Shown here piece by piece: positions 28,980-49,761 of a DNA stretch of 64,000 bases (position 1 is its first letter; every line of letters starts with the position of its first letter). A model generated the notes under the pieces. That model had not been told where the DNA came from. It saw nothing but the letters and a program-made list of their open reading frames with translations, and searched no databases. A program made the position numbers and the translations under genes. Source of the stretch: Candidatus Sumerlaeaceae bacterium. Its GTDB lineage: Bacteria > Sumerlaeota > Sumerlaeia > Sumerlaeales > Sumerlaeaceae. The stretch spans positions 160,001 to 224,000 of the forward strand of contig JBMFRB010000004.1 of the NCBI GenBank assembly GCA_049968255.1, read 5' to 3'.

Positions 28980-29636
28980 TCACGGTGGGCCAATCCCAAA
29001 GGCGCGCATAAAGTCTGCACGTCCATCGCGAAGTTCTACCCGTCCGTTTGACATTAGTGCGTTTTCGCGATCATGAGCCTCACCGTGGGGATAGCGTACG
29101 TCCTTCGCTGACGGATTGAAACTATACTCGACCGGCACCCACAGGCATCTGGCGAGCCAAATATCGTGCGAGTCTCTGTCGACATTGTTTGGCGCTCCAA
29201 TAGGGCCACCGGTGTCTATCGCTGAATTGTTGTAGGCATACCGGAAGCGCTGAAGCCGATCGCCGCGAAATTGCTCGCGGTAGCTTGGGCAAAACAGGTA
29301 CTCATCGCTAGTCAGGTAGCCCATCCGAACCAGAACCCGCGGAACCCCATCCCAGCTTCCATTTGCAGCCGGTCCATCCCCTGGCGTGGTTTGGCCCATG
29401 CTTTCTTGCAAACCAGCCGTCCCGTCAGCAGGTGGATATCGGTTGTTATCAAGTTTATATGCGTACAACGCATACGCGATCGCTTTGAGGTTCGAGGCGC
29501 AACGCGCCTGGTTGGCGCGTTCTTTGGCATGCTTGAGATTCACCAATGCGATCGCGCTAAGGATCGCCACAATGGCGACCACGATGAGAAGCTCAATGAG
29601 AGTAAAAGCGACGGAAAGACGTCGTGCGGAAATCAC
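28980..29636 (-). CDS. Type IV pilin-like / pseudopilin protein (prepilin N-terminal cleavage-methylation motif, degenerate H-X9-DG-type C-terminus)
   Basis: RRLSVA|FTLIELLIVVAIVAILSAI, CASNLKAI, FCPS and HG...NALMSNGRV. GTG start overlaps the upstream TGA (GTGA). Confidence 0.85.
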   Translation of the reverse strand: MISARRLSVAFTLIELLIVVAIVAILSAIALVNLKHAKERANQARCASNLKAIAYALYAYKLDNNRYPPADGTAGLQESMGQTTPGDGPAANGSWDGVPRVLVRMGYLTSDEYLFCPSYREQFRGDRLQRFRYAYNNSAIDTGGPIGAPNNVDRDSHDIWLARCLWVPVEYSFNPSAKDVRYPHGEAHDRENALMSNGRVELRDGRADFMRAFGIGPP

Positions 29637-30451
29637 TCGTACAAAGCCCAATCTTCCTCGCGAACAGTTGCCACAGGGGTCGAATGGATTGCGGCCACTG
29701 CATCCAGGTCAAATCCTGCCGTTGGCGGCGCATTCATCGCATTTCCCGGATCATTGACGATATGACCATGGCTATCCATCGTGGGCGCAATATTCGTGGT
29801 GCCAGTGTCAGTAATCTTGACGTATTTCGCGTAGCTCAGTCCCACAGCCGCGAGATCAAAAGAGTCCCCGCCACTGACGTGAGGATCGAAGGGCGAGATT
29901 CCGTTTGTCGGCGAACTAAAAACTGGCGTCACGCCAGCAAGTCCATGATAGCGCCATTTTTCATAGAGCCCCGCTGTAGTTCCAGGATCATCGAACTCGA
30001 AAGGAAATGTGAACCACGTGAGGCTGTCCGTGCTCACCGCAACGGTGGCTGTTTCGCAAAATACAAAATCCGGATAGCCGATGGGTTGAAATGGATTCTC
30101 AAACACGGTGAAATCGGAGCCAGGCCCATCCACGATCACGTGGCTTGTAAATTCGAGAACGATGGAGCCACCCACTCCCAGCGAGAGAAGTTCCGTTTCG
30201 TCTGCGTTGGGCAGCTCTGGGTTGCTATTGCCGTGCGGTGGACCGAGGACATTGTGCGGCAGATACGATTGCCCGAACCCGGCTCCAAATCCTGGTGTAA
30301 ATGATAAAACGCCGTCAGGGAAACACTGGGCAGCAGCTAGGCCACAGTCAAAGTTTAGACCTGACGCAAGGCAAAAAACGATTCCGGAATTTGCGGCGAC
30401 GTTTCGCAAAAAACGCACAACGCCGTTCCCGCACTCAATTCGATGCGTCAT
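29633..30451 (-). CDS. Secreted cell-surface protein, probable cobalamin-binding, with C-terminal DWALYE motif
   Basis: Atypical N-terminal leader ending AAAQ. LGPP.G, LSLG.GGSI.L.F, DGPG.DF.VFENPF and GFDLDAV motifs. First gene behind a B12 riboswitch, with a GGAGGA RBS. Confidence 0.7.
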   Translation of the reverse strand: MTHRIECGNGVVRFLRNVAANSGIVFCLASGLNFDCGLAAAQCFPDGVLSFTPGFGAGFGQSYLPHNVLGPPHGNSNPELPNADETELLSLGVGGSIVLEFTSHVIVDGPGSDFTVFENPFQPIGYPDFVFCETATVAVSTDSLTWFTFPFEFDDPGTTAGLYEKWRYHGLAGVTPVFSSPTNGISPFDPHVSGGDSFDLAAVGLSYAKYVKITDTGTTNIAPTMDSHGHIVNDPGNAMNAPPTAGFDLDAVAAIHSTPVATVREEDWALYE

Positions 30452-30501
30452 CCTAAGTCCTCCACTTCTCTCTCAGCGAAGAAGTTTTTTTTCGGAGGGG
30501 T

Positions 30502-30673
30502 CCGGCGGCACCGTCTTCTGACTGACAGATCACCCTACTTTCCGCGCCTTCCCAGGGGAGCAATGCCCCAGTGGCCTAGATGCGGATTTCGTCCCTGATC
30601 ACAGCGGCGTGCCCGTGAGGGATTTGCACCCTCTTCCGACAGATGCCCCCGATAGGCATCACTATGCCGTCGG
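30502..30673 (-). ncRNA. Cobalamin (AdoCbl/B12) riboswitch
   Basis: Minus strand reads CGGCAT...CGGAAGAGGGTGCAAATCCCTC...CGCCGCTGTGA...GCCACTGGGG..CCCCTGGGAAGGC...AGTCAGAAGAC-GGTGCCG. All conserved blocks are in order, including the B12 box and the P1 pairing CGGCAT/GTGCCG. Confidence 0.92.
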
Positions 30674-30686
30674 CTTCCGACATCGC

Positions 30687-30695
30687 ACAATACCA
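30687..30695 (-). promoter_or_regulatory. Possible extended -10 promoter (TGgTATTGT) for the riboswitch transcript
   Basis: Would place the TSS near 30680, just 5' of P1. No well-spaced -35. Confidence 0.35.
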
Positions 30696-30852
30696 TAGCC
30701 CATGCCCGACAATTCAGAGGAAGAAGAAGCACCCGAAAATGTGCAGAAAAGACTTTCGCTCATTCTTGAGTTGACATGGCTCGTCCGGGTTCTTTGTAAG
30801 AAGAAAGAGAACGTAAAAGTGCAGCCTTCTGAAGGCTGAAGGACGTGTGGCG

Positions 30853-31383
30853 ATGCTCCGGATAAAAGTGACGTTAGCGGCGCTCATCGTGGCAGTGGTA
30901 GGCTTGTGCACAGCATCGGCAAGCGATTTTTCGATAAGCGGGCGGCCTCGATGGCTCAAAGTGAAAAGCGAACAAGAGCCAGTCGTTGTGCGCGACTTGG
31001 GCACGCATCGCGAGCTAGGCCAGCTCGCGAAGGGCGATCTGATCCTTGCTTTTGGTTCCACCGAGAAATGGGTGACTTTCTCCTACCGCGGCCGCATCAG
31101 TTACATCCCTGCATCTGCGGCTGAAGATGCCTATCCCGTCGAGAAAGGCGAGCCAGTCTGGCGCGGCTTTGGCCCCACACTCGAAGAGCGAGTAAAACAG
31201 ACGCAAAAGGAATTGCTAGCGCTTGCTGACGATCAAGACCGCCTGCTCGATCCCGACTTGAAGAAACCCACTCCCGCCCAGCAACAGGCCGCGTTGCAGG
31301 GAGGGCAGCCGCTGTCGGGAATGCAGAACGCCGTGCGCGAGGGACTCACTCCTCAGCGTGGTCGTGGACATGGGTACTATTAG
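30853..31383 (+). CDS. Secreted SH3-like domain protein
   Basis: Signal peptide ending ASA. LGQL.KGD.I...KWV.F.Y.GR..YI SH3b-like pattern. Confidence 0.6.
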   Translation: MLRIKVTLAALIVAVVGLCTASASDFSISGRPRWLKVKSEQEPVVVRDLGTHRELGQLAKGDLILAFGSTEKWVTFSYRGRISYIPASAAEDAYPVEKGEPVWRGFGPTLEERVKQTQKELLALADDQDRLLDPDLKKPTPAQQQAALQGGQPLSGMQNAVREGLTPQRGRGHGYY

Positions 31384-31439
31384 GCCTTTGCTCGCACAAG
31401 CCCGTCTTGCCAACGGACATGACGAAACACGAGGAAAGT

Positions 31440-34167: not shown

Positions 34168-34220
34168 TGCTATCCTCTTATTTTGCTATTAAGACAATCT
34201 AAATCTCGTTTCACCGACGC

Positions 34221-36587
34221 TTATTCCCTTCCGAATTCAAACAAGGTGGTGCGGAGTTTCTTGGCGTCTTTCGCCGGCGGCGCACAAGCCTCTGCTGTGC
34301 AGACATATCCCACAGCTTTACCGTCTTTCGAAGGCAGGTAGTCAGTCTTTGCCGCTGCCTCTGGTGCAAGAACCTCCACACATTTACCTACACGGAAAGT
34401 CCCAAGTGCTGTGCGCCACAGTTCAAGCGTGTCTTTTTGTCCGATTGCCCCAACAATGATTGCCTTTGGCGGGCCGAAAGCGACTGTGAGCAAAGACCGG
34501 CCATAAGAAGACAGTTTCTCATCCCACCACTCGCCTTGGCGGTAGACTAACCCTACGCACTCGGTGCTTCGTGCCATGAACTTGTTTTGACCGGTGAGCC
34601 GGTATAACTGAAACCAAACCCGGGCGGCCGTTGCGTTCGGAGAATCAATCAGTGCGTCCTGAACCGGGATAAGTGGTAAGTGCCACAGCTCGGCCGCAGT
34701 ACCCTGCTCGCCATCGTAATAAATAGCTCTGCCACTGGCAGCATATTGAGCGTGGACACGCTCCATCAACTCCTCGGCAGCCTGAATCAGGGCATGATTG
34801 CCACTGATCTCTGCACAGTCCAGCAGTGCCTCAGCCATTGCAACCTGATCCTCCAACAAAACCCATGAGCGGTCCGGAGTTTGACCGCGTCCTAAGTAAT
34901 GCACGATTCCGGTGTTAGTCGTCGCCTGATCCAAAAGCTCGCTCACTGTTTTTATCGCAAAATCGCGCCCCTGCTTGTCCCCTAAATAACGCCAGGCGTC
35001 GGCGTATGCGCAAACCATGGATGCGTTCCACGAAACAACACGCGCTTTATTGACGAGGGGGAAATCGTCGCGTTCATATCGTTTGGCGCGGAGAAATTGC
35101 GTGGCACTTGTGAGCGCTTTCTGTGCCGTTGCCGCTTTGATATTGAGCGCTGTTGCAACCTCAGAGAGCGCCTGGCTACGGCGAAGCATGCGCTTTTCCG
35201 TCCGATTGCCACTGTCAAGCCCGTAGAGCCGTAAAACAACCTCTCGCTCCAATGGTTTATCCAGTGCTTCCATGATCTCCGCCGCCGACCATGTAAAGTA
35301 TGCTTCGGGCGCATGCGGATTGGCGTCCGGCTGCTGGCTAGAATAGAAACCCCCATGCTGATCTTCGAATGTGTCGCGCATGAACGACAAAACATGCTCT
35401 GCTTCCTCCCGATAAGAGCTCTTGCCAGTTGCTGCATAGGCCCAGCAGTAGGCCCGCAACATTATCGCCTGATCAGGAAGGAGCTTACCATCGAGGGCAA
35501 ATCCAGACGCATCTAGTCGGTGGAAATAGCCTCCCAAGATCGGATCCTTGAGGGGGCTTGTCGCTAATGCATCCAGGATCTGCTCAGCCACGGCGAGCGA
35601 TACACTGCTACCGGTGTCGGAATAATGATGAAGAGCGAGCAACACCATCCGCCCCCACGGCGCTGTTTCGCGAAGAGCACCGTCCTTTTTCAAGTCAGCT
35701 CCCGCCCGGTGAATGATCTCCGCCGTACGGCGCGCCGCATCCTCCTTGTTTATTTCAGCGGTCGGAGAAGTTTGCAACAACTGCGCCCGTGCCTCGCTTA
35801 CGAGTTGCTCGAACCTTTTGGCCTGAGCTACAGCTCGATCTTTGCTTGAGCGATAAACCTGCTCCACGGCCTTTAGAAAATCCAACATTCCCGTTGCGCC
35901 GCTGGTTTCAGCACGCGCGGGCAGGTACGACGTTGCTTCGAAAGGCGCCCCGTCGGGTAAGGCGGCGATAACCAGCGAACCGCGAGCTGCGTCGCCACGC
36001 AAAATGGCATGAAACAACTCGTAGCGCTGTGCTACCTCAGGACGTTCGTCGACATCCACCTTCAAGGGCACAAAGTGTGTGTTGAGAAAGTCAGCAACCT
36101 GCGGGTCGTTAAAAGTCTCCTCATCAAGAGCTCGGCTTTCCAATGACCAACTTGCCCCTAGTGCTACAATCACGGGGCGGTCGAGTTGCCGTGCTGCCTC
36201 GAACGCCTCTTTTGCCCAGGGATGCCAATGCACCGGGGCGCTTGTGAGAGAGCGAAGATACGGGCTTGCTTCGTCTGCCAGGCAATTCTCGTCTCTATAT
36301 TGCACGACTGGCGTCGTTATCTTGGAGGCCGGGGATGCCTCTGGTACTGTGGTAAGTGCTTCCTCTGCTGGACTGGTTGTCTGGTCCTTTGCTTCAACAC
36401 CGGTGGTTTGTGGCTCAACTGCTAAAGTGCGCTGCTCGGAGGTGGGACTAGTGCCTTCCGAGGATTTTGCCAATGGTGTCTCAAGAGCCTCGGGAAATTC
36501 TTTTTTTGACTGCTGACATCCCAGTAAGAAGGCGGCTATGACACCGACCACCATGATTCCGCGCAGCAAGCTAAATGCTTTGCTCAT
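34221..36587 (-). CDS. YyaL/SPATA20 (DUF255) family lipoprotein, degenerate
   Basis: Lipobox LLGC, SPYL....PV.W.PW, KVD.DERP, GGFYSS and LEDQ. The CHWC motif is replaced by SLES. Confidence 0.8.
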   Translation of the reverse strand: MSKAFSLLRGIMVVGVIAAFLLGCQQSKKEFPEALETPLAKSSEGTSPTSEQRTLAVEPQTTGVEAKDQTTSPAEEALTTVPEASPASKITTPVVQYRDENCLADEASPYLRSLTSAPVHWHPWAKEAFEAARQLDRPVIVALGASWSLESRALDEETFNDPQVADFLNTHFVPLKVDVDERPEVAQRYELFHAILRGDAARGSLVIAALPDGAPFEATSYLPARAETSGATGMLDFLKAVEQVYRSSKDRAVAQAKRFEQLVSEARAQLLQTSPTAEINKEDAARRTAEIIHRAGADLKKDGALRETAPWGRMVLLALHHYSDTGSSVSLAVAEQILDALATSPLKDPILGGYFHRLDASGFALDGKLLPDQAIMLRAYCWAYAATGKSSYREEAEHVLSFMRDTFEDQHGGFYSSQQPDANPHAPEAYFTWSAAEIMEALDKPLEREVVLRLYGLDSGNRTEKRMLRRSQALSEVATALNIKAATAQKALTSATQFLRAKRYERDDFPLVNKARVVSWNASMVCAYADAWRYLGDKQGRDFAIKTVSELLDQATTNTGIVHYLGRGQTPDRSWVLLEDQVAMAEALLDCAEISGNHALIQAAEELMERVHAQYAASGRAIYYDGEQGTAAELWHLPLIPVQDALIDSPNATAARVWFQLYRLTGQNKFMARSTECVGLVYRQGEWWDEKLSSYGRSLLTVAFGPPKAIIVGAIGQKDTLELWRTALGTFRVGKCVEVLAPEAAAKTDYLPSKDGKAVGYVCTAEACAPPAKDAKKLRTTLFEFGRE

Positions 36588-36643
36588 CTCGCGATTCTCC
36601 TACGCAATCCATACGTTTTGGTGCTAGGCAGTTCCCGCCTCCC

Positions 36644-37711: not shown

Positions 37712-37930
37712 CGATCGTCCCTTCCATCCGTTGTCGCGTTGTCATTGCTCTGGCTATTCCACCTGACCATTGCTCTGAGACGGTTTCAACGGTAGAATAA
37801 TCTATCGACCCAGCGGCCGGCATGGGCAAGAGAGATGTTTTCCAGCACAGATTGCCAAACGCAGGGTGATTAACCGGCACGCTTACCTGCTGTTGGCTGG
37901 CTGTGCCCCTTGCCGGATGGGCATAGCCCC

Positions 37931-37962
37931 AAAAAGAAAAGACCCCCGATTTTCGAGGGTCT
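37931..37962 (-). terminator. Rho-independent terminator downstream of the VIT-vWA gene
   Basis: Minus strand AGACCCTCGA-AAA-TCGGGGGTCT followed by TTTCTTTTT. Confidence 0.75.
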
Positions 37963-38102
37963 AATCTTGAGGTTAGGAGGTTATGGTAAACTGTCCGAGG
38001 ACAGCTGCTGGAACTCTTTTTCAATCTCTCCTGCCGGAGAGTGCTCTGGCCTGCTGCACTGTTTCAGACATCATATCCTCAAAAAAGGTTCCCAACGTTT
38101 TT

Positions 38103-40445
38103 TCATTTTTTTGCATCCACGAGTTTCGACAAGTCCTCTGGCAGTTGCTCTAGCCCATCTTCTGCGAACTCCACGATAGCCTGCCCAAGTTTTACACGTA
38201 TTTTATCGCTCAAGCGGAAGATAGCCCGCAGTTCCGGATGCATGTGCACGAGCTCAAAGTAAGCCTGCGAATAGTTTCTCACGCGCACGACTTCTTTAGC
38301 CTCTACCGTACCTTCCTCCATCCACATATCGCCAACCCGCACGAAGCCACGTCCCGCGATCCACTTCAACGGCACCTCATCGGTCGTGAGACCGCTAGGT
38401 ACGGATTTCGCTTCTTTCATGCTCCGAACCGCCTTCGCTGCGGCTATGGCCGCTTCCCCGCTCTCAGCACGCAGTGCTTTCAGCGGCGCCAGTGCGACGC
38501 CTGCTTGCATACCCATCGCGCGCCGCCCAATTGTCAAGTGCTGTGGCGGTTCAACTAGTGGACGGTCGTGTGCTGAGGCTGAAGGTGCACTCTGTGGGAA
38601 TAACTCAGGTTTGTCTTCCACGACAAGGTACGAAGTGAACGGGGTGACGATACCGTAACGCTTTGCCAGGCTCACGATCTCGTCGCGGATCTCTTTTGAG
38701 TCCGGCTTGTCGCGCAATGCATCCAGCAAATAGCCCACCTTTCTCGTCGCCCACAGCGTTTCGATCGGTTCGTTCCCGCGCGCCTCTTCGGGCAGTGATT
38801 TCTCAAAATCAAATTGCGCAGGCGCTTCTCCAATATTTCCGCGCAACCTGATAAGGACAGGGCCACTCTTTTTGTAGCGTCCGAAAACGGTGAGCTGTTC
38901 TCCGAAAAAAAGATCAGGCAAAACCTTGGGATAGAAGTCAAAGACCTCTCCGCCCTCAAATGTGAGCTCAAGAGAACTCAAGGCCGGTCGGGCAACTTTA
39001 TCGAAAAGCCGCGAGACTGGCAGCTCGAGATCCTCCTCGGGCGCCACATAATCCGCACAGGCACGCGTGCGCTCAGCAATTTGATCAAGCAGGTGCGTGT
39101 TAACGTCGTGGCCCACCCCGAAAGCAAAAATGCGTAACTCTTTTCCTCGCGTGCCTTGCTCAATCCGCTCGAGAATTTTGTCCGTCGCCGTGATGCCAAC
39201 TGTTGGAAGGCCGTCCGTCGCAAAGAGAACAAGCTTGCGGCGCTTGTGACTTGCAGTGGTATCCGGCTCACTTGCCGCGACTTTTATTGCTACATCGAGT
39301 GCATCCGCGATGTTTGTTCCGCCAGCAGCTCGTAAATTCTCGAGCCAGTGCTTGGCGCGGGCAATTTCCTCGCTGGTTGCATGCACGAGTTGGTCGCGGT
39401 AGGTCTCAGTCTCCGTGGCAAATCGGACCAGAGCAAAGCAATCATGCGGATTCAGTTGGCTCAGGCAATAGTTCACAGCGCGCCGTGCTTGGTCAATTTT
39501 GCCACTTTCGCTCATCGAGCCACTTGTATCGAGTACGAAGACGAGATCGAGCGGTACGGATGTTTGCTCTTGGCTTTTCACTGGTGGGCTCAACATCAGG
39601 CAAAAATATCCAGCTTCAGGAGGATGACGCGAAGCCAGAAGGGTCACCGCCACATCTTTTTCCCGATAATCGTACAGGAGGACAAAGTGTTTGCTCCAGT
39701 CTGTCTCGCTCGTCGGGACGATTTTTACTTCGGTAGAGTTTTCTCCAACGTCTCGTGTTTCGATCTTATGCGTGGGGGAGTAAACATTTCCGAGTTTCCG
39801 CGGTGCCTCGATTGAAACCGTGAACTCTACGTCCAGTTGTTTAGCCTTGCCATGTCTCCGGCTTGTGCGACCCCCTTGCATCATTGCTGGATCTGGACCA
39901 CCCATCGGAAAAACATAGCGAAAAATGCCCTGCTGCGCAGACAGTGGTTGGCTGAATTCGATCTCGATGGTCTGTGAGCTGCCTGCCGGCACAGGGAAAA
40001 CCGCTACCCGAAAAAGATTCCACTCGGCCCACTCCAACACGCCAGGATCCTTCATGCGTCGCACGATGTCTTCGTAAATCCTGCGTGCTTTATCTTTTTC
40101 GAGAATTTCTCCACGCTGCGGCTTGCCGTTTACATAAAGCACGAAATCGGTCACGCTTGCTCCTGGGGGCAAAGGAAAGAAAAAATCCACCTCCAAGGGT
40201 CGAGGATTCGGATTGAAAAACTCCTGGTGAACCCGAGTGCGAGCAATGTTTTCACGTATTCGGGTATCAATTACGGCTCGCCCGGGCTCAATCGCCAAAA
40301 CATCCCGCGGCCGGGGAACGAGGAGCCCGAGTCCCCAGCTTGCCTGAGCGTGCAGGCTCGCAAAACCCAAAATCGCGAGCATACTTTTTTGAAACAGACC
40401 AGAGACAAAGGCTCTGGAACTGTTCCCAAACACTTTCCCCTTCAC
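38103..40445 (-). CDS. Secreted VIT + vWA (inter-alpha-trypsin inhibitor-like) protein
   Basis: VIT (Q.F.NP...E..F.FPLP), MIDAS DTSGSM, GGTN, TDG.PT and YGIVTPFTSYLV motifs. Confidence 0.9.
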   Translation of the reverse strand: MKGKVFGNSSRAFVSGLFQKSMLAILGFASLHAQASWGLGLLVPRPRDVLAIEPGRAVIDTRIRENIARTRVHQEFFNPNPRPLEVDFFFPLPPGASVTDFVLYVNGKPQRGEILEKDKARRIYEDIVRRMKDPGVLEWAEWNLFRVAVFPVPAGSSQTIEIEFSQPLSAQQGIFRYVFPMGGPDPAMMQGGRTSRRHGKAKQLDVEFTVSIEAPRKLGNVYSPTHKIETRDVGENSTEVKIVPTSETDWSKHFVLLYDYREKDVAVTLLASRHPPEAGYFCLMLSPPVKSQEQTSVPLDLVFVLDTSGSMSESGKIDQARRAVNYCLSQLNPHDCFALVRFATETETYRDQLVHATSEEIARAKHWLENLRAAGGTNIADALDVAIKVAASEPDTTASHKRRKLVLFATDGLPTVGITATDKILERIEQGTRGKELRIFAFGVGHDVNTHLLDQIAERTRACADYVAPEEDLELPVSRLFDKVARPALSSLELTFEGGEVFDFYPKVLPDLFFGEQLTVFGRYKKSGPVLIRLRGNIGEAPAQFDFEKSLPEEARGNEPIETLWATRKVGYLLDALRDKPDSKEIRDEIVSLAKRYGIVTPFTSYLVVEDKPELFPQSAPSASAHDRPLVEPPQHLTIGRRAMGMQAGVALAPLKALRAESGEAAIAAAKAVRSMKEAKSVPSGLTTDEVPLKWIAGRGFVRVGDMWMEEGTVEAKEVVRVRNYSQAYFELVHMHPELRAIFRLSDKIRVKLGQAIVEFAEDGLEQLPEDLSKLVDAKK

Positions 40446-40543
40446 GGCTGTGCTCCTTTCGCTTGCGCACCCTAATGCTCTTTAGACTCATTGTGGCAGA
40501 AAAGGTTTGCCACCCAAAACTCATAAAACTGAGGGACGGCATC

Positions 40544-41329: not shown

Positions 41330-41450
41330 AAAAAGAATATTCTGCCGCCGGCTGTTCTGTGTCAAAATTGGGAATTTTCGCATGCGTGACCCGGGGGGCC
41401 TCTGATCCCCGTTACTGTCCGAAATTCGTGCACAAATCATTGATTCGTTG

Positions 41451-41492
41451 TTGACGTCGTGAAAGAACTCTAAATAATTGGATCGATTCAAT
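41451..41492 (+). promoter_or_regulatory. Sigma70-like promoter plus LacI-type palindromic operator upstream of the alpha-glucan operon
   Basis: TTGACG-16-AATAAT (41451-41478). ATTGGATCGATTCAAT (41477-41492) is a 16-bp palindrome with central CG and one mismatched pair. Confidence 0.55.
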
Positions 41493-41514
41493 AAAATGAC
41501 CGGAGTCTTTGCTA

Positions 41515-44500
41515 ATGAAAACCGCACATTTTAGAAGAGCACTGAGCTTTTTCCTCGCTCATATCTTCGCGCTCTGCGCCATAGTTCAAGCAGCCCCGTC
41601 GTTGCCCCCCTCTATCACCGTCAAGGAAACGTCAGGGGGAAAATACCTTGTCACATTCACGCTCAAATCCCAAGCATCAAGTGTGTATCTGTCGGGATCC
41701 TTTGCCGACTGGCGTCCCGACAAAATTGAAATGACTAAAAAAGGTGAAGCCTTTACCGCGACCGTCGAACTCCCGGAAGGAAAGCATGAATACAAATTTG
41801 TCGAAGACGGCAAAACCTGGCGCCCCGATCCTCTCAACCCAAAAGGTGCGCCCGATAATTTCGGCGGACAAAACAGTGTTCTCGAACTGACAAAGGAAGC
41901 CGTGGCGGCATCACAGCGGGCTGTGGTGGGTGATCCTGACATCTCCAAGGACATCGCGGCGGAGGGAATCCAGGTTTGTCCGTCGGTCAAGGCTGTGCCC
42001 CACGGCGATGGAACCTACGCTGTAACCTTCCGCTTCAAAGCCCAAAATGCCGAAAAAGTATTTCTCGCTGGCTCATTCAACGACTGGTCTGCGGATGCCA
42101 AGCCCATGGCGCGCGAAGGCGATGAGTTCGTGGCAACCCTAGACCTCAAGCCTGGTGAGTACGAATACAAATTTGTTGTGAACGGGAAAGAGTGGCGCGA
42201 GGACCCGCTCAACCAAGAGAGCAAAGAAAATGGTCTCGGCGGCAAAAACAGTGTCATTCGCCTCGGGGAAAAGGGGCAAAAGACACAGCAGACCTCGCCG
42301 AGTAATGAGGAAAAGACTCCACCCACCAACACAAACCCTACGGAGCCCACAACAAGTGCGACAGCTCTTCGCCCTTTTCCCAGTATCGAAATTGTCCCCC
42401 TGGGTAACCATAAAAACCGTGTGATGTTTCGATTCAAGGCGCCCGACGCCGACACAGTCCATCTCGCCGGCTCCTTCAATGGCTGGAATCCCACAACCCT
42501 GAAAATGCAGAAAGAGGGCGACACCTTCGTCATCTCCCAAGTGCTGCTAGATGGGGAGCATCAATATAAATTCGTTATCGATCACAGCCGGTGGCAGGAA
42601 GATCCCCTCAACCCGGTCAAGACCGATGATGGGCAAGGAGGTTATAACAGCGTGCTGCGCTTGGGACACGGAGCCGCTGTTGTCCGCTCTGAAGCAAAAA
42701 TCGGCGACGGAAAGATTGACGGAGATTTCCTCTTCCACGATCCCGAATCGATCGAGTTCTTCAACCCGCTCAGCAAGAACGGCCCCGTCGTCATTCGCGT
42801 GCGAACATTGGCCCACGACGCTGAGAAAGCATGGCTACGTTTTTTAGAAGCGGCAGGGGAAAAGGACGTTCTTCTTCGCTCGGTTTACTCAGATGAGCGA
42901 TTCGAGTATTTCGGTGGTAAGCTCCCGCAAATCGAAAATTACTATTTCCGCTTTAGCGACGGTAAAACGCGTATCGACTATGGCCAAGATGAAGTCAAAA
43001 CACCTCCCGCGAAAGTCACCCCGTTCACGGCCAAAATTGATGAAAGCAAAATCTTCGTCACCCCAGAATGGGCACGTCACGTGGTCTGGTACGAAATTTT
43101 CCCCGAGCGCTTCCGCAATGGCTCAAAAGACAATGACCCCACAGGAACACGTGCGTGGACGCTCGATTGGGAGCACCTCCTCCCGCAGGACGGTGGGAAA
43201 TTCTATCCCAGCGTTTTTTTCCGGCGCTATGGGGGCGACTTACAGGGGGTCATGGAAAAGCTGGACTATTTGAAGTCGCTTGGCGTGGGGGCGATCTGGT
43301 TTAATCCACTTTTCCAGTCAGAGTCACTTCACAAATACGATGCTACCGACTATCGCCACATCGATGACCAGTTCGGATATAAAGGCGAGTACGAGCGAAT
43401 TGTGGCACAAGAGGACCTGCTGGATCCTTCGACGTGGAAATTCAATAAGAGCGATCAACTTTTCCTCGAGCTCATAAAAAAAGCGCATGCCGCAGGCATC
43501 AAAATTATCATCGATGGAGTCTTCAACCACACAGGCACAAAACATCCTGCCTTTCAGGATGTCCTCAAGAACGGCAAAAACTCCCCGTTCAGAGACTGGT
43601 ACAACATCACGAGTTGGGCCCCCCTTGATTGGGAAGGGTGGTATGGGAATAAGGATTTGCCTGTGTTCAAAGAGGATGAACACGGCTATGTTGACCCAGA
43701 AGTGAGAAAGCATATTTTTGCCGTGACGCGGCGCTGGATGGATCCCAATGGCGACGGCGATCCGTCCGATGGAATTGATGGCTGGCGTCTCGACGTCCCC
43801 AATGAGGTGAGCAGCGAATTTTGGCGGGAATGGCGCAAACTCGTAAAATCGATCAATCCCAATGCCCTCATCATGGGAGAAATTTGGGATCCGCCCAAGC
43901 AGTGGCTGCGCGGCGACCAATTTGACTGCGTCATGAATTACCAGTTCGCAAAAGCTCTGCTCCGGTTCTACGCGAACAACGGGACCGCTACGCGCCTGGC
44001 GAACGATATCGCGAAGATGCTTTTCGATGTTCCTGAACAGGCCAACTACGTCATGATGAATCTCCTCAATTCCCACGACACTGACCGACTCGCCTCGATG
44101 CTCTATAACCCCGGCCGCGAATACGATAACGGTAACCGCATCCAAGACCTGAAAGCGGGCGAAACTTACAAGACCGACAAACCTACCACCGATACCTACC
44201 ACAAGATGAAGGCCGTCGTGGGGGTGCAGTTCTGCTACGTCGGTGGACCAATGATCTACTATGGTGACGAAGCCGGCATGTGGGGCCCGGATGATCCTGG
44301 TGATCGTAAGCCGATGATCTGGAAAGATCTCGAACCGTACGAAAAGCCTGAAGAGAACTACTTTATGCAGGACATCTTCTCGCACTATCAGCGGTGCGCA
44401 GCCATCCGCAACTCTTTGCAGGCACTTCATGTCGGCGATTATGAAACGATTCTGGCCGATGACGCGGAAGCGCTCTTTGCTTTCCGCCGCTGGACCAAAG

Positions 44501-44757
44501 ACCAGACGGTCATCGTCGTGACGAATAACTCGAGCAAAGCAAAAACGGCCAAGATCAAGTTGCCAGAAGGAGCTCCTGCGCAATACATCGACGTGCTGAA
44601 CGATCCCCGAGTGAAAGTCATTCCCGCCAAACGCCTTGATGCTTCCGACACTACCCGCATTGATTACACAAAGGCCCAACCGAGAATCAAGGCGAAGGGA
44701 CGAACTCTTGACGTTGCCATAGAGGCCTATACTTCGCGAATCCTTCTAGGACGGTAG
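41515..44757 (+). CDS. Secreted GH13 amylase/neopullulanase with three CBM48 (AMPK-beta-like) domains
   Basis: Signal peptide, three copies of V.L.GSF..W...YKFV..G..W..DPLN, and a P/T linker. Catalytic regions DGVFNH, GWRLDV, GEIW and NSHD. Confidence 0.92.
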   Translation: MKTAHFRRALSFFLAHIFALCAIVQAAPSLPPSITVKETSGGKYLVTFTLKSQASSVYLSGSFADWRPDKIEMTKKGEAFTATVELPEGKHEYKFVEDGKTWRPDPLNPKGAPDNFGGQNSVLELTKEAVAASQRAVVGDPDISKDIAAEGIQVCPSVKAVPHGDGTYAVTFRFKAQNAEKVFLAGSFNDWSADAKPMAREGDEFVATLDLKPGEYEYKFVVNGKEWREDPLNQESKENGLGGKNSVIRLGEKGQKTQQTSPSNEEKTPPTNTNPTEPTTSATALRPFPSIEIVPLGNHKNRVMFRFKAPDADTVHLAGSFNGWNPTTLKMQKEGDTFVISQVLLDGEHQYKFVIDHSRWQEDPLNPVKTDDGQGGYNSVLRLGHGAAVVRSEAKIGDGKIDGDFLFHDPESIEFFNPLSKNGPVVIRVRTLAHDAEKAWLRFLEAAGEKDVLLRSVYSDERFEYFGGKLPQIENYYFRFSDGKTRIDYGQDEVKTPPAKVTPFTAKIDESKIFVTPEWARHVVWYEIFPERFRNGSKDNDPTGTRAWTLDWEHLLPQDGGKFYPSVFFRRYGGDLQGVMEKLDYLKSLGVGAIWFNPLFQSESLHKYDATDYRHIDDQFGYKGEYERIVAQEDLLDPSTWKFNKSDQLFLELIKKAHAAGIKIIIDGVFNHTGTKHPAFQDVLKNGKNSPFRDWYNITSWAPLDWEGWYGNKDLPVFKEDEHGYVDPEVRKHIFAVTRRWMDPNGDGDPSDGIDGWRLDVPNEVSSEFWREWRKLVKSINPNALIMGEIWDPPKQWLRGDQFDCVMNYQFAKALLRFYANNGTATRLANDIAKMLFDVPEQANYVMMNLLNSHDTDRLASMLYNPGREYDNGNRIQDLKAGETYKTDKPTTDTYHKMKAVVGVQFCYVGGPMIYYGDEAGMWGPDDPGDRKPMIWKDLEPYEKPEENYFMQDIFSHYQRCAAIRNSLQALHVGDYETILADDAEALFAFRRWTKDQTVIVVTNNSSKAKTAKIKLPEGAPAQYIDVLNDPRVKVIPAKRLDASDTTRIDYTKAQPRIKAKGRTLDVAIEAYTSRILLGR

Positions 44758-44773
44758 AGAAAGCGCGATTCGC

Positions 44774-46006
44774 ATGGCGCCAGGCGCAGTGAAAAAACTG
44801 TTCCGGGGAACCGTAATCTATCTGTTTATCCTACCGGCATTAGTCCCCATGCTGGCGCTGGTAGGTGTGCCGCTGCTCCAAACGATCTTCTTCAGCTTCA
44901 CGAATCTGAAAGAAAAGAACTTCGACCTCTGGACACTGGGTATCGAGCCGATCGCCGGCTCAACCCAGTGTTCCCGAGGTGTTGCCGTGCGAGTGATTCC
45001 GCGCGGTCCCGCAGCAAAACACGGCGTGCCCGACGGCGCTTGCGCGCTGGCTATCGGCGAGCAAGACGTAAGCAGCACAAGAGTGCTCGAGCGTCTTCTT
45101 GAGAAAGCGAAGCGCGAGTTCGTTAATGGCAAAATTGAGTCGGTTACCCTGACTTACCTTGACCCCCATTCCCCCACGAGCACAACGGTATCACTGCGGT
45201 TCGAGCGCGCTCCCTTCGACTGGCGCGTTGATCCCAACCGCGACAACTCCACTTGGGGACTTGTCGGACTGGCGAATTACAAGCGCGTCCTGATTCCCTC
45301 GAAAGATTCAGACGAAGCGCACACCTTCTATAAAGTTCTGGGAATAACTATCCTGTGGACCGCTATCAACGTCACGTTCCACTATCTCTTCGGCTTCGCC
45401 CTAGCCCTTCTCCTCAATAGAAACGTTCCTGGCACGCGTTTTTACCGCGTCCTTCTCATGTTGCCTTGGGCCGTGCCCGTGTATGTTTCGGCGTTCTCAT
45501 GGCGCTGGCTTTTCAATTCGCAGTATGGCTTCTTCAACGTCATACTTCAAAAACTAGGGCATTCCCCCATCCCTTGGCTTAGCGACACGCTGTGGACGTT
45601 CGTCGCAGTCACCATCACGAACGTTTGGTTAGGCATTCCCTTTATGATGATTAGCTTGTTAGCCGGAATGCAGGCAATCCCCAAAGATCTCTATGAGGCC
45701 GCAGAAATTGACGGGTGTTCGCGCTGGCAAAAGGTTCTCTATGTTACGCTTCCAATGCTTCGGCCAGTGAGTTTGACCATTATTCTGCTAGGGGCCATTT
45801 GGACCTTCAATATGTTTAACGTCATTTGGCTGGTGCAAGGCGGTGGGACAGCCGTAGAAATCCTTGCGACCTACGCCTTCCGCCTTTTCCGCGATTACCA
45901 CGACTACGCCGGTGCCGCAACTTACGGCACACTCATCTTTCTCTTACTGTTGATCTTTAGCTTGTTTTATCTCAAGCTCCTGCATCGAGAGGAGGAGCTT
46001 TACTAA
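44774..46006 (+). CDS. Maltodextrin ABC permease (MalF-like) with PDZ-like periplasmic insertion
   Basis: VGL.NY, LPWAVP and EAA.IDG motifs. Insertion GVAVRVIPRGPAAKHGV.DG..LAIG. Confidence 0.88.
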   Translation: MAPGAVKKLFRGTVIYLFILPALVPMLALVGVPLLQTIFFSFTNLKEKNFDLWTLGIEPIAGSTQCSRGVAVRVIPRGPAAKHGVPDGACALAIGEQDVSSTRVLERLLEKAKREFVNGKIESVTLTYLDPHSPTSTTVSLRFERAPFDWRVDPNRDNSTWGLVGLANYKRVLIPSKDSDEAHTFYKVLGITILWTAINVTFHYLFGFALALLLNRNVPGTRFYRVLLMLPWAVPVYVSAFSWRWLFNSQYGFFNVILQKLGHSPIPWLSDTLWTFVAVTITNVWLGIPFMMISLLAGMQAIPKDLYEAAEIDGCSRWQKVLYVTLPMLRPVSLTIILLGAIWTFNMFNVIWLVQGGGTAVEILATYAFRLFRDYHDYAGAATYGTLIFLLLLIFSLFYLKLLHREEELY

Positions 46007-46843
46007 ATGCCTCGTCAGCCGCTCATTAGCACCCACTTTTGGCTCGCCATCGCCAGTGTTATCGCAATTTTCCCAATCATTTGGGTGCTATCGACGTCGC
46101 TAAAGAAGAAAGAGGACGTTTACCAAACCGTCCGTATCGAGGTCATTCCTTCGCAACCGAATTTTGAAAACTATCACGAAGTCCTAACGATGAACCACGG
46201 CATCTTTCTGCGCTGGTTTCGCAATTCTGCTGTTGTGGCGAGCGCGACGGCGCTTTTTGGCGTGCTTTTAGCGGCGAGCGCAGCCTATGCCTTTTCCCGC
46301 TTCAATTTTTTCGGCAGGAAGCCGCTGATTTTCTTCTTTTTGCTCACGCAAATGTTTCCCGGCGTCGTCCTCTTGGTCCCTCTATATTTCATCTTGCAAC
46401 GGCTAGGCCTTCTTGGGTCCTTTCCGGGGCTGATTTTGGCTTATTGCACGGTCAGTCTCCCGTTCGGCGTGTGGATGTTAAAAGGCTATTTCGACACGAT
46501 TCCCAAGTCGCTAGACGAGGCAGGAATTGTGGACGGCCTCAGCATCGTAGGAGTGTTCTGGCGCATTATTCTCCCACTCAGCCTTCCAGGGATTGCGGTG
46601 ACCGCCTTCTTTGCCTTTCTCACAGCATGGAATGAGTATATGTTTGCGCTCGCTTTCATGACCGGTGAAGAAAACTATCTGCTTCCCGTGGGTATGGCGG
46701 CCGCATTTGGCGATCAGTACCAGACGTTCTGGCACCTCATGGCCGCCGGGTCAATCATCACGACAATTCCCGTTCTTGCTGTGTTTGTGCTCGCCCAGCG
46801 TTACCTCATCAGCGGTTTGACGCAGGGCGGCGTCAAACAGTAA
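46007..46843 (+). CDS. Maltodextrin ABC permease (MalG-like)
   Basis: QMFP, KGYFDTIP.SLDEA..DG, AWNEY and SGLT.GGVK motifs. Confidence 0.92.
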   Translation: MPRQPLISTHFWLAIASVIAIFPIIWVLSTSLKKKEDVYQTVRIEVIPSQPNFENYHEVLTMNHGIFLRWFRNSAVVASATALFGVLLAASAAYAFSRFNFFGRKPLIFFFLLTQMFPGVVLLVPLYFILQRLGLLGSFPGLILAYCTVSLPFGVWMLKGYFDTIPKSLDEAGIVDGLSIVGVFWRIILPLSLPGIAVTAFFAFLTAWNEYMFALAFMTGEENYLLPVGMAAAFGDQYQTFWHLMAAGSIITTIPVLAVFVLAQRYLISGLTQGGVKQ

Positions 46844-48368
46844 CTTCTTTGGGCTGACGGCAAGCAAAAGTGCTCAGCGTGAAAATCACGCTACCTGCCC
46901 ATATAGCGTAGCAGGCCACCCCAAGATTTCTTCGCAGTGCTGTGTTCGTGAGGCCATAGGCTTGAATTGCGAGTTCGAGGCCGAACCACAAAGCCAGTGC
47001 AATGGCCCATCGCATATTAGCAACTGACGTCGCTCGGCGCACGGCAAAAGCCAGCCCGATCAGACGAGAAAAGGTGAATAGCGAAAATAGGACGACGCCC
47101 GGGAGCCCGCCGGCAAAGGCTTGTTCGATCCACTGGTTATGCGGGTGACTCATGCCTTCCACCTGACTTGCGACCGCGGGAAAGAAGCGCCGCGCAGAGG
47201 TTTCAAAAGTCGAATAGCCATATCCCCATCCAAGAAGCGGGCGCTCGGCAATCATCTCCAGGGCTGTGCTTTGGATAGCCATCCGACTTGCAAGCGAAGT
47301 CGGTGCAAAATGACGACCAGTAAGCCACCGGTACGCATCCTTCCAGTGGGCGCGTTGCGATGGGCTAAAGATGGCGAAGGTGGCTCCCGCAATAATCACC
47401 ACAGAGAGAGTGCCCGCAAAGCGTACGCGAGCCCGCGGAGGCGCAGCACACAGGGCCGCCGCCACTCCCACTCCAGCTCCTGCCAAAGCCCCACGGGTTA
47501 CACTGGCGCCGACAATGAGTAACCCTCCCACAGCACTTGCAATGGCCCATGCCGGAGAGCCAAAGCCCCCAACTAGCATCAATGCCGGAAGGAGAAAAGT
47601 TTGGATCATGCCAAAAAAGCCTGTCCGGTTGTGATGCTCGAACGGAAACTGCAGTCGCCAAGTCTGACCGCTGCCCTGAGGCTCGATCCGAATCCATTTC
47701 TGCTCAACCGCAAACGAGGAAGAAAGCATACCAATCCCATAAAGCGCAGTGATGCCAAGCATCACAACGCATGCTATGGCCAAACTTCCCACAATCCCTC
47801 GTACAACTTGCTGACCAAAACCCGATGCTCGGTTTGAGAGGAGAATGACAAGGTAAAAAACACCAGTGTAGGCAACGAGTTCGCGGGCAAACAGCTTGAG
47901 AGAAATCTTTGGGAGAGGCCCTGCGAGCGACACCAGATATTGCCATAGCAAGTAGGCAAGCAACGAACTGAGACAAAGGCGGATTGCCCGATACGCTCTT
48001 TGTGTGATCCCGGATTCTGTTCTGGCGCACAGAATGTTATCGGTCAACCGCGCGCTCTCACGGGCAAGGAGGCCCACACAAAGAATACCCAAAACTGCAA
48101 CAGCGGTGCGCGGACGCGCTTCGCTCGGGGAAGCCGCGATGGCGAGAACACCAAGCAGCGAAGCTCCAAGCACCCCTGCGCCCAATTCGCGGGCAGACCT
48201 GCGAACAGTGCGCGCCCAGGAAATGGCAATTGTTGCCGCAGCAGTGAGGACGCTTACTAAAACGATCCCCAAAAATAGATTCTCTCCGGCCCTGTCCGAC
48301 AAAAACAAAATACTGGCCAACGCCCCCAGGGCGAATCCCAACACTCTATTCACTTTTGCAAATTCCAC
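46833..48368 (-). CDS. O-antigen ligase / oligosaccharyltransferase-like (Wzy_C) membrane protein
   Basis: R....F.H.N, TRGA, P.LG.G and HPHN motifs. Many TM helices. Confidence 0.8.
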   Translation of the reverse strand: MEFAKVNRVLGFALGALASILFLSDRAGENLFLGIVLVSVLTAAATIAISWARTVRRSARELGAGVLGASLLGVLAIAASPSEARPRTAVAVLGILCVGLLARESARLTDNILCARTESGITQRAYRAIRLCLSSLLAYLLWQYLVSLAGPLPKISLKLFARELVAYTGVFYLVILLSNRASGFGQQVVRGIVGSLAIACVVMLGITALYGIGMLSSSFAVEQKWIRIEPQGSGQTWRLQFPFEHHNRTGFFGMIQTFLLPALMLVGGFGSPAWAIASAVGGLLIVGASVTRGALAGAGVGVAAALCAAPPRARVRFAGTLSVVIIAGATFAIFSPSQRAHWKDAYRWLTGRHFAPTSLASRMAIQSTALEMIAERPLLGWGYGYSTFETSARRFFPAVASQVEGMSHPHNQWIEQAFAGGLPGVVLFSLFTFSRLIGLAFAVRRATSVANMRWAIALALWFGLELAIQAYGLTNTALRRNLGVACYAIWAGSVIFTLSTFACRQPKEVTV

Positions 48369-48642
48369 ATCCCTGCCTGTGTTTGACGTTCTTTGCGTTC
48401 TCGCCTCTTGGTAGAAAGCGGGTACGTTCCCAAAAAAAATGAATCATGCAATTGTTTCTCTTGCAAGCCAGGTTGAGCTCAAGTAGGAAGCACCTGAGTG
48501 GCGAAAAAGGGAGGTGATGCAGCAAGCAAAGCACGCGAGTACATGTTTTGGCGGATGAGTGACAGAGGGTCAGAAAGGTCTCCGAGCTGACTCTCTCCGT
48601 AGCGGGAAGAAAAACACGCTCGAACGAGAAGGAGGGAAAACG

Positions 48643-49761
48643 ATGAAGCGACTCTTCGTGTGCGGCTTTGTCTACCTGGCAGGGGCTGTCGTGATGGCTG
48701 ACACGCCGAATGCTATCGGGTACTGGGTCGCACAGTCCGACATCATTCCTGGGTATCCCACGCAGATGGCTGGTGCCGCTGTCGTCGGCGATTACCTTTA
48801 TATTCTTGGTGGCAATAACCTGGTGGAAGGCGACACGGGTCGCGTTTTTCGCCTAAAGATTGATCCGGCAACCGGTGCGCTCAGCGCTTGCACTGCGATG
48901 ACCACTTTGCCGGCGATGAACAATTTTGTCTACATTGGCGAGCAAGTTGAAGCCACGACTGACAGTATCTACATTTGCGGCGGTGGTTACAATACGACTG
49001 GCCCCAACCGTAACAATGTTACCTCGATTGGTGTGGATTCGAATGGCAACTTTTCCTCGCCGGCTTGGAAGGAAAGCCCTGCATTCCCCGGCGGATATGA
49101 TCCGGAACTTGGCTCGGCTGCGATTGCACAAAACGGCTACATCTACGCTATGGGCGGAGATAGTGAGAGCGGAACCCCGCCGCTTTACGACATTTGCGTT
49201 TATGCCCAAACTCAGGCTGACGGGAATTTGGGAACATTTGCCACGGGAGCGACACTTCCCTCCGCGTGCTACTTCAATGCGAATGCAGCAATTGGCAACA
49301 ACATCATTCTGCACCGCGGACTGACGACCAAGGGTGTGAACACGTCCGTGACGAGCGATATTTACGTCAATACCGTGAACAACGATGGAAGCATGGGTAG
49401 CTGGGTCCAGCAGACATCGGCAAATTTGCCGGCCGGCCGTTACAATCTAGGCCTAGTCGCTGTCGGCGATACCGTGTTCGCCATTGGTGGGCGCGCCTCG
49501 GGCGGGACACCGCAAAACAACGTGTGGCGTGCGCAGATGACGGGCAGCAGCTTGGGAGCATGGCAGACTTCGACAGATGCGCAACTGCCCGACGGAGTTC
49601 GGTACCATGCGGTCGTCTACTCGCCCACAAGCAAAAGCCTGTACGTCGTGAGTATTCGGCGTGCAAGCGACGGTGCTGTCTCGAACGAAGCGTATATATC
49701 TGCGCCGTTGTTCCCCCGCACCGTTTCGGCAGCCGCGCAAGACTGGAGCCTGTACGAGTAA
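48643..49761 (+). CDS. Secreted Kelch-like beta-propeller protein with C-terminal DWSLYE motif
   Basis: AAGGAGGG RBS and signal peptide ending VMA. Repeats YLYILGG, IYICGG, IYAMGG and VFAIGG with W...LP. Confidence 0.8.
   Translation: MKRLFVCGFVYLAGAVVMADTPNAIGYWVAQSDIIPGYPTQMAGAAVVGDYLYILGGNNLVEGDTGRVFRLKIDPATGALSACTAMTTLPAMNNFVYIGEQVEATTDSIYICGGGYNTTGPNRNNVTSIGVDSNGNFSSPAWKESPAFPGGYDPELGSAAIAQNGYIYAMGGDSESGTPPLYDICVYAQTQADGNLGTFATGATLPSACYFNANAAIGNNIILHRGLTTKGVNTSVTSDIYVNTVNNDGSMGSWVQQTSANLPAGRYNLGLVAVGDTVFAIGGRASGGTPQNNVWRAQMTGSSLGAWQTSTDAQLPDGVRYHAVVYSPTSKSLYVVSIRRASDGAVSNEAYISAPLFPRTVSAAAQDWSLYE

Follow-up and report, generated by a model that had tools for sequence, protein, structure and literature searches.

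We analysed a 64,000-nucleotide stretch of the genome of a Candidatus Sumerlaeaceae bacterium (phylum Sumerlaeota; contig JBMFRB010000004.1), referred to here as the window, in which two otherwise dissimilar genes close with the same six-residue C-terminal tail. The first lies on the minus strand (29633..30451) and encodes a protein of 272 residues that terminates in TPVATVREEDWALYE directly before its stop codon; the second lies on the plus strand (48643..49761, within an open reading frame (ORF) that opens at 48559) and encodes a protein of 372 residues, counted from its ATG, that terminates in PRTVSAAAQDWSLYE. Both genes finish D-W-x-L-Y-E-stop. In the first gene the tail D-W-A-L-Y-E occupies 29636-29653 and is followed by a TGA stop at 29633-29635 (whole feature 29633..29653, minus strand; GAT TGG GCT TTG TAC GAG TGA), and in the second the tail D-W-S-L-Y-E occupies 49741-49758 and is followed by a TAA stop at 49759-49761 (whole feature 49741..49761, plus strand; GAC TGG AGC CTG TAC GAG TAA). 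These endings had been singled out in an original prediction, made from the letters of the window, as a putative sorting signal on two unrelated secreted proteins, and both ORFs, their coordinates and the synonymous codon differences between them (GAT/GAC, TTG/CTG, TGA/TAA) are as it had given them.

When the regular expression proposed with that prediction was run over the 1263 stop-to-stop ORFs of at least 30 residues in all six frames of the window, only these two matched. Estimating the chance rate of a terminal motif from its frequency inside gene-like ORFs, we expected 0.0026 terminal matches to the pattern W.[LIM][YF][EQDN]$ among the 49 gene calls of the window (Poisson P for two or more, 3.5e-6), and 0.037 terminal matches to the looser original expression (P = 6.7e-4).

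The bodies that carry the tail are unrelated, as predicted, the 272-residue protein having no Pfam domain in a Pfam scan and the 372-residue protein carrying Kelch repeats. Direct reading of the two sequences revealed no C-terminal transmembrane helix or basic tail in either, and the N-termini of both passed a crude signal-peptide test, in agreement with the predicted export. The 272-residue protein has homologs in Candidatus Sumerlaeaceae/Sumerlaeota that are named 'cell surface protein', and its score against NF033170 (LIC_13355 lipoprotein family) was 46.5 bits, below the cut-off of 120. Its AlphaFold2 model, built on a 66-sequence alignment, is a beta-sandwich with a mean predicted local distance difference test score (pLDDT) of 89.7, for which Foldseek found a weak F5/8-type-C/discoidin/CBM32 likeness (E 6e-5 to 1e-3, TM-score 0.3-0.56); we therefore refer to it and its homologs as the jelly-roll family. 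Its signal-peptide region was placed approximately at residues 1-41 (30329..30451, minus strand), following the crude heuristic and the hydrophobic N-termini of its homologs, which lead into a conserved FPD, and its mature end lies near a conserved (Q/A)-x-F-P-D. Between the last beta-strand, GFDLDAVAAIH, and the tail runs a flexible linker, STPVATVREE (residues 257-266; 29654..29683, minus strand), delimited by the linkers of homologs and by a drop in block-mean pLDDT from 96 (residues 251-260) to 62 (261-270) and 52 (271-272).

The 372-residue protein is a predicted exported beta-propeller (Kelch_6/Kelch_1 matches) with a signal-peptide-like N-terminus (MKRLFVCGFVYLAGAVVMA, then DTPN; 48643..48699, plus strand) whose boundary was set by sequence reading; the crude heuristic likewise called it signal-peptide-positive, with a cut three residues closer to the N-terminus (after ...YLAG). 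The linker that precedes its tail, LFPRTVSAAAQ (49708..49740, plus strand), has low pLDDT and varies among homologs while the tail is kept. The AlphaFold2 model has a mean pLDDT of 87.8, with residues 362-372 falling below 50. Because tail and linker have low pLDDT in both models, against 87-90 for the bodies, the tail is predicted to be a flexible peptide that stands free at the C-terminus. Querying the ESM Atlas with the 30 C-terminal residues of the Kelch protein produced no usable match. The Kelch gene is flanked by an ABC (ATP-binding cassette) ATPase gene and by a divergent Wzy_C gene that encodes a 511-residue polytopic O-antigen-ligase-like protein (46833-48368, minus strand).

Distribution of the tail across families and lineages

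We then followed the tail through the relatives of both proteins. All homolog counts for the jelly-roll family refer to the best 120 of 2669 matches with E<=0.001. Strict tails, closing in W.[LIM][YF][EQDN]$, are found on 57 of these 120. All 57 have the Trp, 55 have Leu at position -3 and 56 have Tyr at -2; the final position holds E (45 tails), Q (8) or D (4), and an acid, E or D, occupies -6 in 43. Last strand and Trp are joined by a linker in which A, S, T and P abound and whose length is 9-13 residues in 69 of 72 tails. Other members have variant endings, namely W-x-T-Y-D, W-x-F-Y-E, W-x-[LV]-Y-R, W-S-L-M-E and a group ending in W-L-[LM]-[AV]-P. The variants W-L-[LM]-[AV]-P$ and W-x-[LVM]-Y-R$ (P0065-P0069, P0072-P0074, P0067) stand at the same position behind the same kind of linker, and they may be lineage-specific dialects of the tag.

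A midpoint-rooted tree of the jelly-roll bodies alone, with tails and C-terminal extensions trimmed, held 117 rows after omission of P0059, P0107 and P0111, in which the last-strand motif was not found. The W tail occurs in 71 of these rows, and all 71 fall within one clade of 74, the other three members of which are P0069 and P0052, with variant tails, and P0109, a long branch of uncertain placement. The tree fits a single gain of the tail in this family, although the minimum number of label changes under the tail classification used is four.

In the Kelch family the tail W-x-[LIM]-[YF] is terminal in 15 of 15 homologs (44-100% identity), the last residue being E, Q or N in 13 and the Tyr itself in two, and the Trp that corresponds to W368 is invariant in the alignment. 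A third family came from the surroundings of the jelly-roll gene. A single contig scan with the jelly-roll family yielded 80 loci, 8 from Sumerlaeota and 72 from other phyla that served as controls, and in four of the Sumerlaeota loci (L005-L008) the gene directly upstream of the jelly-roll gene encodes a protein of ~380 residues with a weak NHL-repeat signature. Its tails in these four loci are KWLMYE, FWTLYQ, VWTNYE and FWTLYH, and nine of its nine database homologs end in W-x-x-[YF]-[E/Q/Y]. These loci constitute a three-gene cassette (NHL-like, jelly roll and a pseudopilin, described below) with two tail-bearing products.

The motif is hence not confined to the two proteins from which it was predicted, and judged from their sequences, the tail is a module carried by at least three unrelated bodies, all three families having signal-peptide-like N-termini by the crude rule. 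Its codons vary freely across loci (Leu TTG/CTG/CTA/CTT, Tyr TAC/TAT, Glu GAG/GAA, and all three stops), and selection therefore acts on the protein rather than the DNA, as had been claimed from the first two genes. The same distribution bears on whether the tail could be a structural element, either a strand or plug that docks back on its own body or a strand swapped between subunits in a homo-oligomer. An alternating W-x-L-Y could well form a beta-strand, and exchange between subunits is beyond the reach of monomer predictions; but one tail serves three different folds, its pLDDT is low in both monomer models and homologs from other phyla fold without it, which makes this explanation very unlikely.

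Restriction to the phylum was then assessed over the same loci. On greedy gene calls, the pattern W..[YF].$ ended 14 of 169 in the window and the eight Sumerlaeota loci but none of the 832 from the 72 control loci (Fisher p 1e-11), and a stricter pattern applied to stop-to-stop ORFs of at least 100 residues matched 7 of 321 and 1 of 4652, respectively. Within the Sumerlaeota set, a signal-peptide-like N-terminus was present in 13 of the 14 tail matches and in 47 of the 155 other gene calls; the sole signal-negative match (L006, 12244-13458) ends in GWIEFK and probably matches by chance. Both window proteins have their closest database relatives in Candidatus Sumerlaeaceae/Sumerlaeota, the phylum to which the original prediction had linked such tails. 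That the shared ending is a coincidence, or a convergence without function, has nothing in its favour other than the shortness of the motif; with ~0.003 such endings expected in the window, conservation of the motif down to ~44% identity in three families and its absence from the 832 gene calls of other phyla, this explanation is effectively refuted and of negligible probability.

The composition of the tail, with its aromatic and hydrophobic residues combined with acids at -6, often at -7, and at -1, raises the question of a weak interfacial anchor, in which W, L and Y would insert into the membrane or lipopolysaccharide (LPS) and the acids would bridge LPS through divalent cations, with no receptor involved. 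Genes for LPS are present in the phylum: in L007 the cassette has as neighbours a lipid A acyltransferase gene, a CMP-KDO-synthetase-type cytidylyltransferase gene (KDO, 3-deoxy-D-manno-octulosonic acid) and a weak LptC match, and because lipid A and KDO-type genes adjoin it there, the Sumerlaeota envelope, as read from gene content, is probably LPS-bearing and of the diderm type. The affinity to be had from three or four hydrophobic side chains, however, would be low, and the near-invariant W, L and Y and the strictly terminal position suggest a specific binding pocket, so that we assign an anchor of this kind very little probability.

The tail and described sorting signals

A match to a described sorting-domain hidden Markov model (HMM) would have counted against the original prediction. 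Our scans gave none: when the last 40 residues of four proteins were searched, no Pfam or NCBIfam model reached even E<=10. Homologs of the same bodies do carry known modules at this position. In the control loci the jelly-roll homolog usually ends right after the GFDLDA... strand; among 34 proteins scanned, seven (P0090, P0107, P0109, L052, L016, L017 and L031) scored above the cut-off of TIGR04183, the type A C-terminal domain (CTD) of the type IX secretion system (T9SS); the jelly-roll homolog P0092 scored above the PEP-CTERM cut-off (21.4 vs 16), providing a positive control; and 11 of the 120 listed homologs have a dockerin (PF00404) annotation. Since homologs from other phyla bear T9SS, PEP-CTERM, dockerin or transmembrane-type ends where the Sumerlaeota proteins bear the tail, we interpret the tail as a sorting or docking tag specific to the phylum.

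The signals of the LPXTG/sortase, PEP-CTERM/exosortase and GlyGly-CTERM/rhombosortase systems resemble the tail in being lineage-restricted signatures at the extreme C-terminus of Sec-exported proteins with diverse bodies. Tripartite signals of this type occupy the position of the tail in the jelly-roll homolog P0092 and in relatives of the NHL-like family from CSSED10-310, whose genes adjoin jelly-roll homologs in L009, L012 and L051. The likeness of these relatives to the NHL-like family is uneven: the L009 protein matched it with E 4e-9 in tblastn and 4e-13 in BLASTP, the L051 protein gave a weak tblastn match (E 0.003), and the L012 protein had no BLAST match to it, its likeness resting on position and inspection by eye. 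The C-termini of all three consist of a short motif, ~18-20 hydrophobic residues and a basic tail, an exosortase-type architecture, yet none scored above an HMM cut-off. The window tail differs from such signals in that it has no transmembrane helix or basic tail and no HMM match, and consists of 5-7 conserved residues that run up to the carboxylate: as nothing follows W-x-L-Y-E, it is no LPXTG signal (no NCBIfam match at E<=10 on the last 40 residues), and it has none of the marks of PEP-CTERM, GlyGly-CTERM or other transmembrane-type CTERM signals (TIGR02595-type HMM). With no helix or basic tail and an end at the carboxylate, a membrane-embedded transpeptidase mechanism is unlikely. The CSSED10-310-type jelly-roll homologs themselves (L009 7935-9101, L012 9878-11032, L051 9029-10207; also P0071, P0081, P0087 and P0094) have an extra C-terminal domain of ~110 residues with an aromatic-rich last strand (...EFGY, ...EFSF, ...SFTF), which matched no NCBIfam sorting model.

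The T9SS CTD is likewise a C-terminal module, one that moves periplasmic proteins across or onto the outer membrane, and records labelled Gemmatimonadota, Chlorobi or Glassbacteria have it on their jelly-roll homologs (L016, L017, L052, L031). It is a folded domain of ~70-100 residues, however, whereas the tail is predicted to be an unstructured hexapeptide after a linker, and neither TIGR04183/PF18962 nor dockerin PF00404 matched the window proteins. In L034 (8169-9515, 9434-10840), L052 (8328-10010, 10007-10984) and L073, a propeller gene adjoins the jelly-roll homolog and both products bear T9SS type A domains, paralleling the Sumerlaeota pair with its W tails; tblastn revealed no homology of these propellers to the NHL-like family. 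The WxL domain of Firmicutes (PF13731), a folded cell-wall-binding domain that has two WxL motifs and is well over 100 residues long, shares with the tail a W-x-L signature near the C-terminus of non-covalently held surface proteins; it differs in being a folded domain and in lineage and envelope type, and it gave no Pfam match to the whole proteins or to their last 40 residues. The signal read by the barrel assembly machinery (BAM), in which an aromatic last residue, usually F or W, ends a transmembrane beta-barrel, is also distinct, as the last residue is E, Q or D in all 57 strict tails and the models show soluble bodies, one a beta-sandwich and the other a propeller.

The tail could in principle be the recognition or cleavage site of a covalent sorting enzyme (sortase-, exosortase- or PorU-like), being removed as the protein is attached to lipid, glycan or cell wall. 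It stands where its homologs bear enzyme-processed signals (T9SS CTD, PEP-CTERM), and the Wzy_C gene lies divergently beside the Kelch gene, both of which favour this possibility. It lacks, on the other hand, both a folded CTD and the hydrophobic helix or basic tail that would keep the substrate at the membrane, nothing lies beyond the motif that could be removed (all 57 strict tails end at the acid or Q), and there is no gene for a sorting enzyme in the window or beside the cassette; we regard covalent sorting as improbable. A second enzyme-based explanation fares no better with us: the tail as a signal for periplasmic quality control, read by a PDZ or tail-specific protease (DegS/DegP- or Prc/Ctp-like) in turnover or stress signalling. 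PDZ proteases read free C-terminal peptides with aromatic and hydrophobic residues, and a free flexible peptide with such residues near the carboxylate is what the tail is predicted to be. Known bacterial PDZ ligands, though, have a hydrophobic or aromatic residue in last place (DegS-type Y-x-F-COOH, Prc-type non-polar end), as opposed to the acidic or amide residue that closes the strict jelly-roll tails without exception, and a degron would not be expected to replace the sorting domains of homologs or to persist on three families of binders; this reading is improbable as well.

A parallel in logic exists with eukaryotic signals. The peroxisomal targeting signal PTS1 (-SKL) is read by the tetratricopeptide-repeat domain of Pex5, and -KDEL by the KDEL receptor. 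Like the tail as we read it, these are motifs of three to six residues that require a free C-terminus and are read non-covalently by a receptor; they differ in serving eukaryotic compartments and in their sequences and receptors, and the analogy is one of logic alone. Nothing on a tail of this kind was found in the open-access literature searched.

The pseudopilin gene beside the jelly-roll gene

Directly downstream of the jelly-roll gene of the window, and overlapping it, lies a conserved gene that the original prediction had overlooked (28980..29651, minus strand), which encodes a prepilin-type pseudopilin of the DUF1559/H-X9-DG kind. Its start may be the TTG at 29651 or, as plausibly, a GTG at ~29637 that overlaps the upstream stop codon. 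The assignment follows from N_methyl, T2SSG, DUF1559 and GspG-type matches, which cover the N-terminal part alone, with a score of 23.6 against TIGR02532 (cut-off 16.3). The pseudopilins of the Sumerlaeota loci have ~206-223 residues, with an A/G-FTLIELL class III signal and a GspG-like helix in the N-terminal part; they match DUF1559 weakly and contain in the C-terminal part an N-[VA]-L-x-x-[DN]-x-x-V segment, which we take to be the one called H-X9-DG; TIGR04294 gave no match in an NCBIfam scan. In a profile search of the PDB the matches were confined to pilin N-terminal helices, and an ESM Atlas query returned N_methyl/DUF1559 clusters only. The globular part is conserved across the window and L001-L008 (NGPAANGSWDGVP, FRYAYN, CLWVP, YPHG) and has no solved relative by sequence.

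An ortholog of this gene lies directly 3' of the jelly-roll gene in nine of nine Sumerlaeota loci (the window and eight others; the L002 copy was missed by the gene caller and found by motif), and in L001, L003 and L004 the jelly-roll stop and the pseudopilin start overlap by 4-8 nucleotides. The family is small and specific, comprising 12 representatives within E<=1e-30 and, at 50% clustering, ~16 full-length ones; the 149,771 matches at E<=0.001 mostly cover the pilin helix alone. Among the 72 control loci a pilin regular expression matched in four (L034, L035, L072, L079), of which the L034 and L035 matches proved spurious and that of L072 is a real pilin-like gene ~6.5 kb from the jelly-roll homolog. 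A fusion of pseudopilin, tail and body was sought among 150 representatives, and the longer matches (P0282, P0141, P0160, P0158, P0170) were uninformative regulator-pilin or pilin-pilin arrangements; in P0282 (609 residues) a regulator-like N-terminal half is joined to a DUF1559-type pseudopilin half, be it a gene-call fusion or a real one. A divergent gene for a secreted 178-residue protein (30847-31383) was also considered as a conserved partner and dropped, as it is present only in the closest locus, L001. After the pseudopilin gene come LarC-like nickel-insertion (PF01969) and AIR-carboxylase/LarB-like genes (AIR, aminoimidazole ribonucleotide), both in the window (26935-28967, minus strand) and in L001 (2671-4671), and in L004 such genes lie nearby on the other side (1160-3487); this neighbourhood is probably local synteny.

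A precedent for a peptide that addresses a secreted protein to a pilin exists. In Vibrio cholerae, according to PMC9565799, a flexible terminal peptide of TcpF hooks the minor pilin TcpB and serves as a secretion signal, and CofJ-CofB of enterotoxigenic Escherichia coli is reported as the type IVb pilus counterpart of that pair (PMC10120004, PMC6048534). A further study reports type IV pilus genes in all of its Sumerlaeota metagenome-assembled genomes (PMC8092238). As in those systems, a secreted non-pilin protein is here encoded in one operon with a pilin, two tail-bearing proteins accompanying the pseudopilin: the jelly-roll gene shares its operon with it in 9/9 Sumerlaeota loci and the NHL-like gene in 4/4, and the Kelch gene does not. 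The systems differ in that the peptide is N-terminal in mature TcpF and CofJ, according to PMC9565799, and C-terminal in the tail proteins; in that the pseudopilin is here a candidate binder and the cassette holds no genes of the pilus machinery; and in that the Kelch protein is encoded elsewhere. The open-access literature searched contained no functional work on DUF1559/H-X9-DG pseudopilins.

A proposed docking tag and its candidate receptor

Taking these observations together, we hold with moderate confidence that [D/E]-W-x-L-Y-[E/Q/D]-COOH is a short linear motif specific to Sumerlaeota which, at the C-terminus of soluble binders exported by Sec, works as an address or docking tag and is read by a receptor in the envelope. 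The export, recognition and fate that we infer would proceed as follows. Soluble, probably ligand-binding modules of at least three families (jelly roll, Kelch and NHL-like) would be exported by Sec; their free tails, each presenting a Trp at -5, a Leu at -3, a Tyr at -2 and a terminal carboxylate or acid, would then be recognised non-covalently by the receptor, which would either retain the protein at the cell surface or hand it across the outer membrane. The tail would in this way fill the role that T9SS CTDs, PEP-CTERM-type signals and dockerins fill on homologs from other phyla. The original prediction had proposed a lineage-specific secretion or surface-anchoring tag, and conservation, restriction to the phylum and the position of a sorting signal support this in part; that the tail directs secretion or anchoring is the part that we keep conditional.

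Because its gene directly follows the jelly-roll gene in all nine Sumerlaeota loci, the DUF1559/H-X9-DG-type pseudopilin is the best and only concrete candidate for the receptor, a tentative identification by analogy that we regard as possible but doubtful. With the pseudopilin in this place, the tail would belong to a display or secretion route linked to type IV filaments and analogous to TcpF-TcpB. The fuller form of this proposal, that the tail is the cargo signal of a filament-dependent route and docks on the globular domain of the co-operonic pseudopilin, is rather unlikely; in it, the pseudopilin with its docked tail would deliver the lectin-like and propeller proteins to the outer membrane or take them through it. 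A complex prediction for pseudopilin residues 41-223 with jelly-roll residues 42-272 scored 0.00 in two runs, which had no controls, and we counted it neither way.

Several points weigh against a docking tag or against the part given to the pseudopilin. Twelve jelly-roll homologs in the tree end directly after the last strand with no C-terminal addition, and the body therefore needs no anchor. Only three tail families were found, two of them in one operon, and no pilin gene adjoins the Kelch gene. In L079 (Planctomycetales), moreover, a DUF1559 pseudopilin gene lies ~410 nucleotides upstream of a jelly-roll homolog that has no tail (4719-5783 and 6194-6856); the link between pilin and body may be independent of the tail or older than it, or this may be a chance adjacency in a phylum rich in such genes. 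Domain scans of the window revealed no receptor, processing enzyme or secretion machinery, and it contains probably exported proteins that lack the tail, namely an amylase (41509-44757), a VIT/VWA protein (38103-40445) and the product of 34221-36587. The statistics are also to be read with care, as signal peptides were called by a crude home-made rule rather than by SignalP, and the Sumerlaeota loci were fetched through the jelly-roll family, so that the enrichment counts are ascertainment-biased and phylogenetically non-independent; the 13 proteins fall into three families, and the counts therefore overstate the independent evidence, which amounts effectively to three events.

New envelope machines (sortases, exosortases, rhombosortase, T9SS) have repeatedly been discovered by way of C-terminal sorting signals, and a strictly terminal, helix-less hexapeptide on unrelated exported binders of an uncultured phylum points to a recognition system absent from current catalogues. 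Written as a regular expression or a small HMM, the tail offers a simple handle for listing substrates and for finding the receptor by phylogenetic profiling. Were the pseudopilin that receptor, type IV filaments would be connected to cargo display, suggesting a role for the abundant DUF1559/H-X9-DG pseudopilins. The filament route, if true, would make the tail the first sorting signal of exported bacterial proteins to consist of a bare C-terminal peptide, and would provide the first function for a member of the very large superfamily of PVC-type (Planctomycetes-Verrucomicrobia-Chlamydiae) and related pseudopilins. While C-terminal sorting and anchoring tags as such are known, the mechanism would be categorically new for bacteria if either the bare-peptide or the pseudopilin reading holds.

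Other genes of the window were noted in passing. A 425-residue protein (11355-12632, plus strand) has a Csm6-type HEPN domain (PF09670, E 2e-29), with no CRISPR-Cas genes noticed nearby. The VIT-VWA protein (minus strand) resembles the 'marine proteobacterial sortase target' TIGR03788 (E 1.8e-90, below cut-off) and ends in ...LVDAKK, with no recognisable sorting signal. The amylase gene (plus strand) encodes a large alpha-amylase/pullulanase-like enzyme with several CBM48/AMPK1_CBM modules and is followed by two ABC sugar-permease genes (44774-46843, plus strand).

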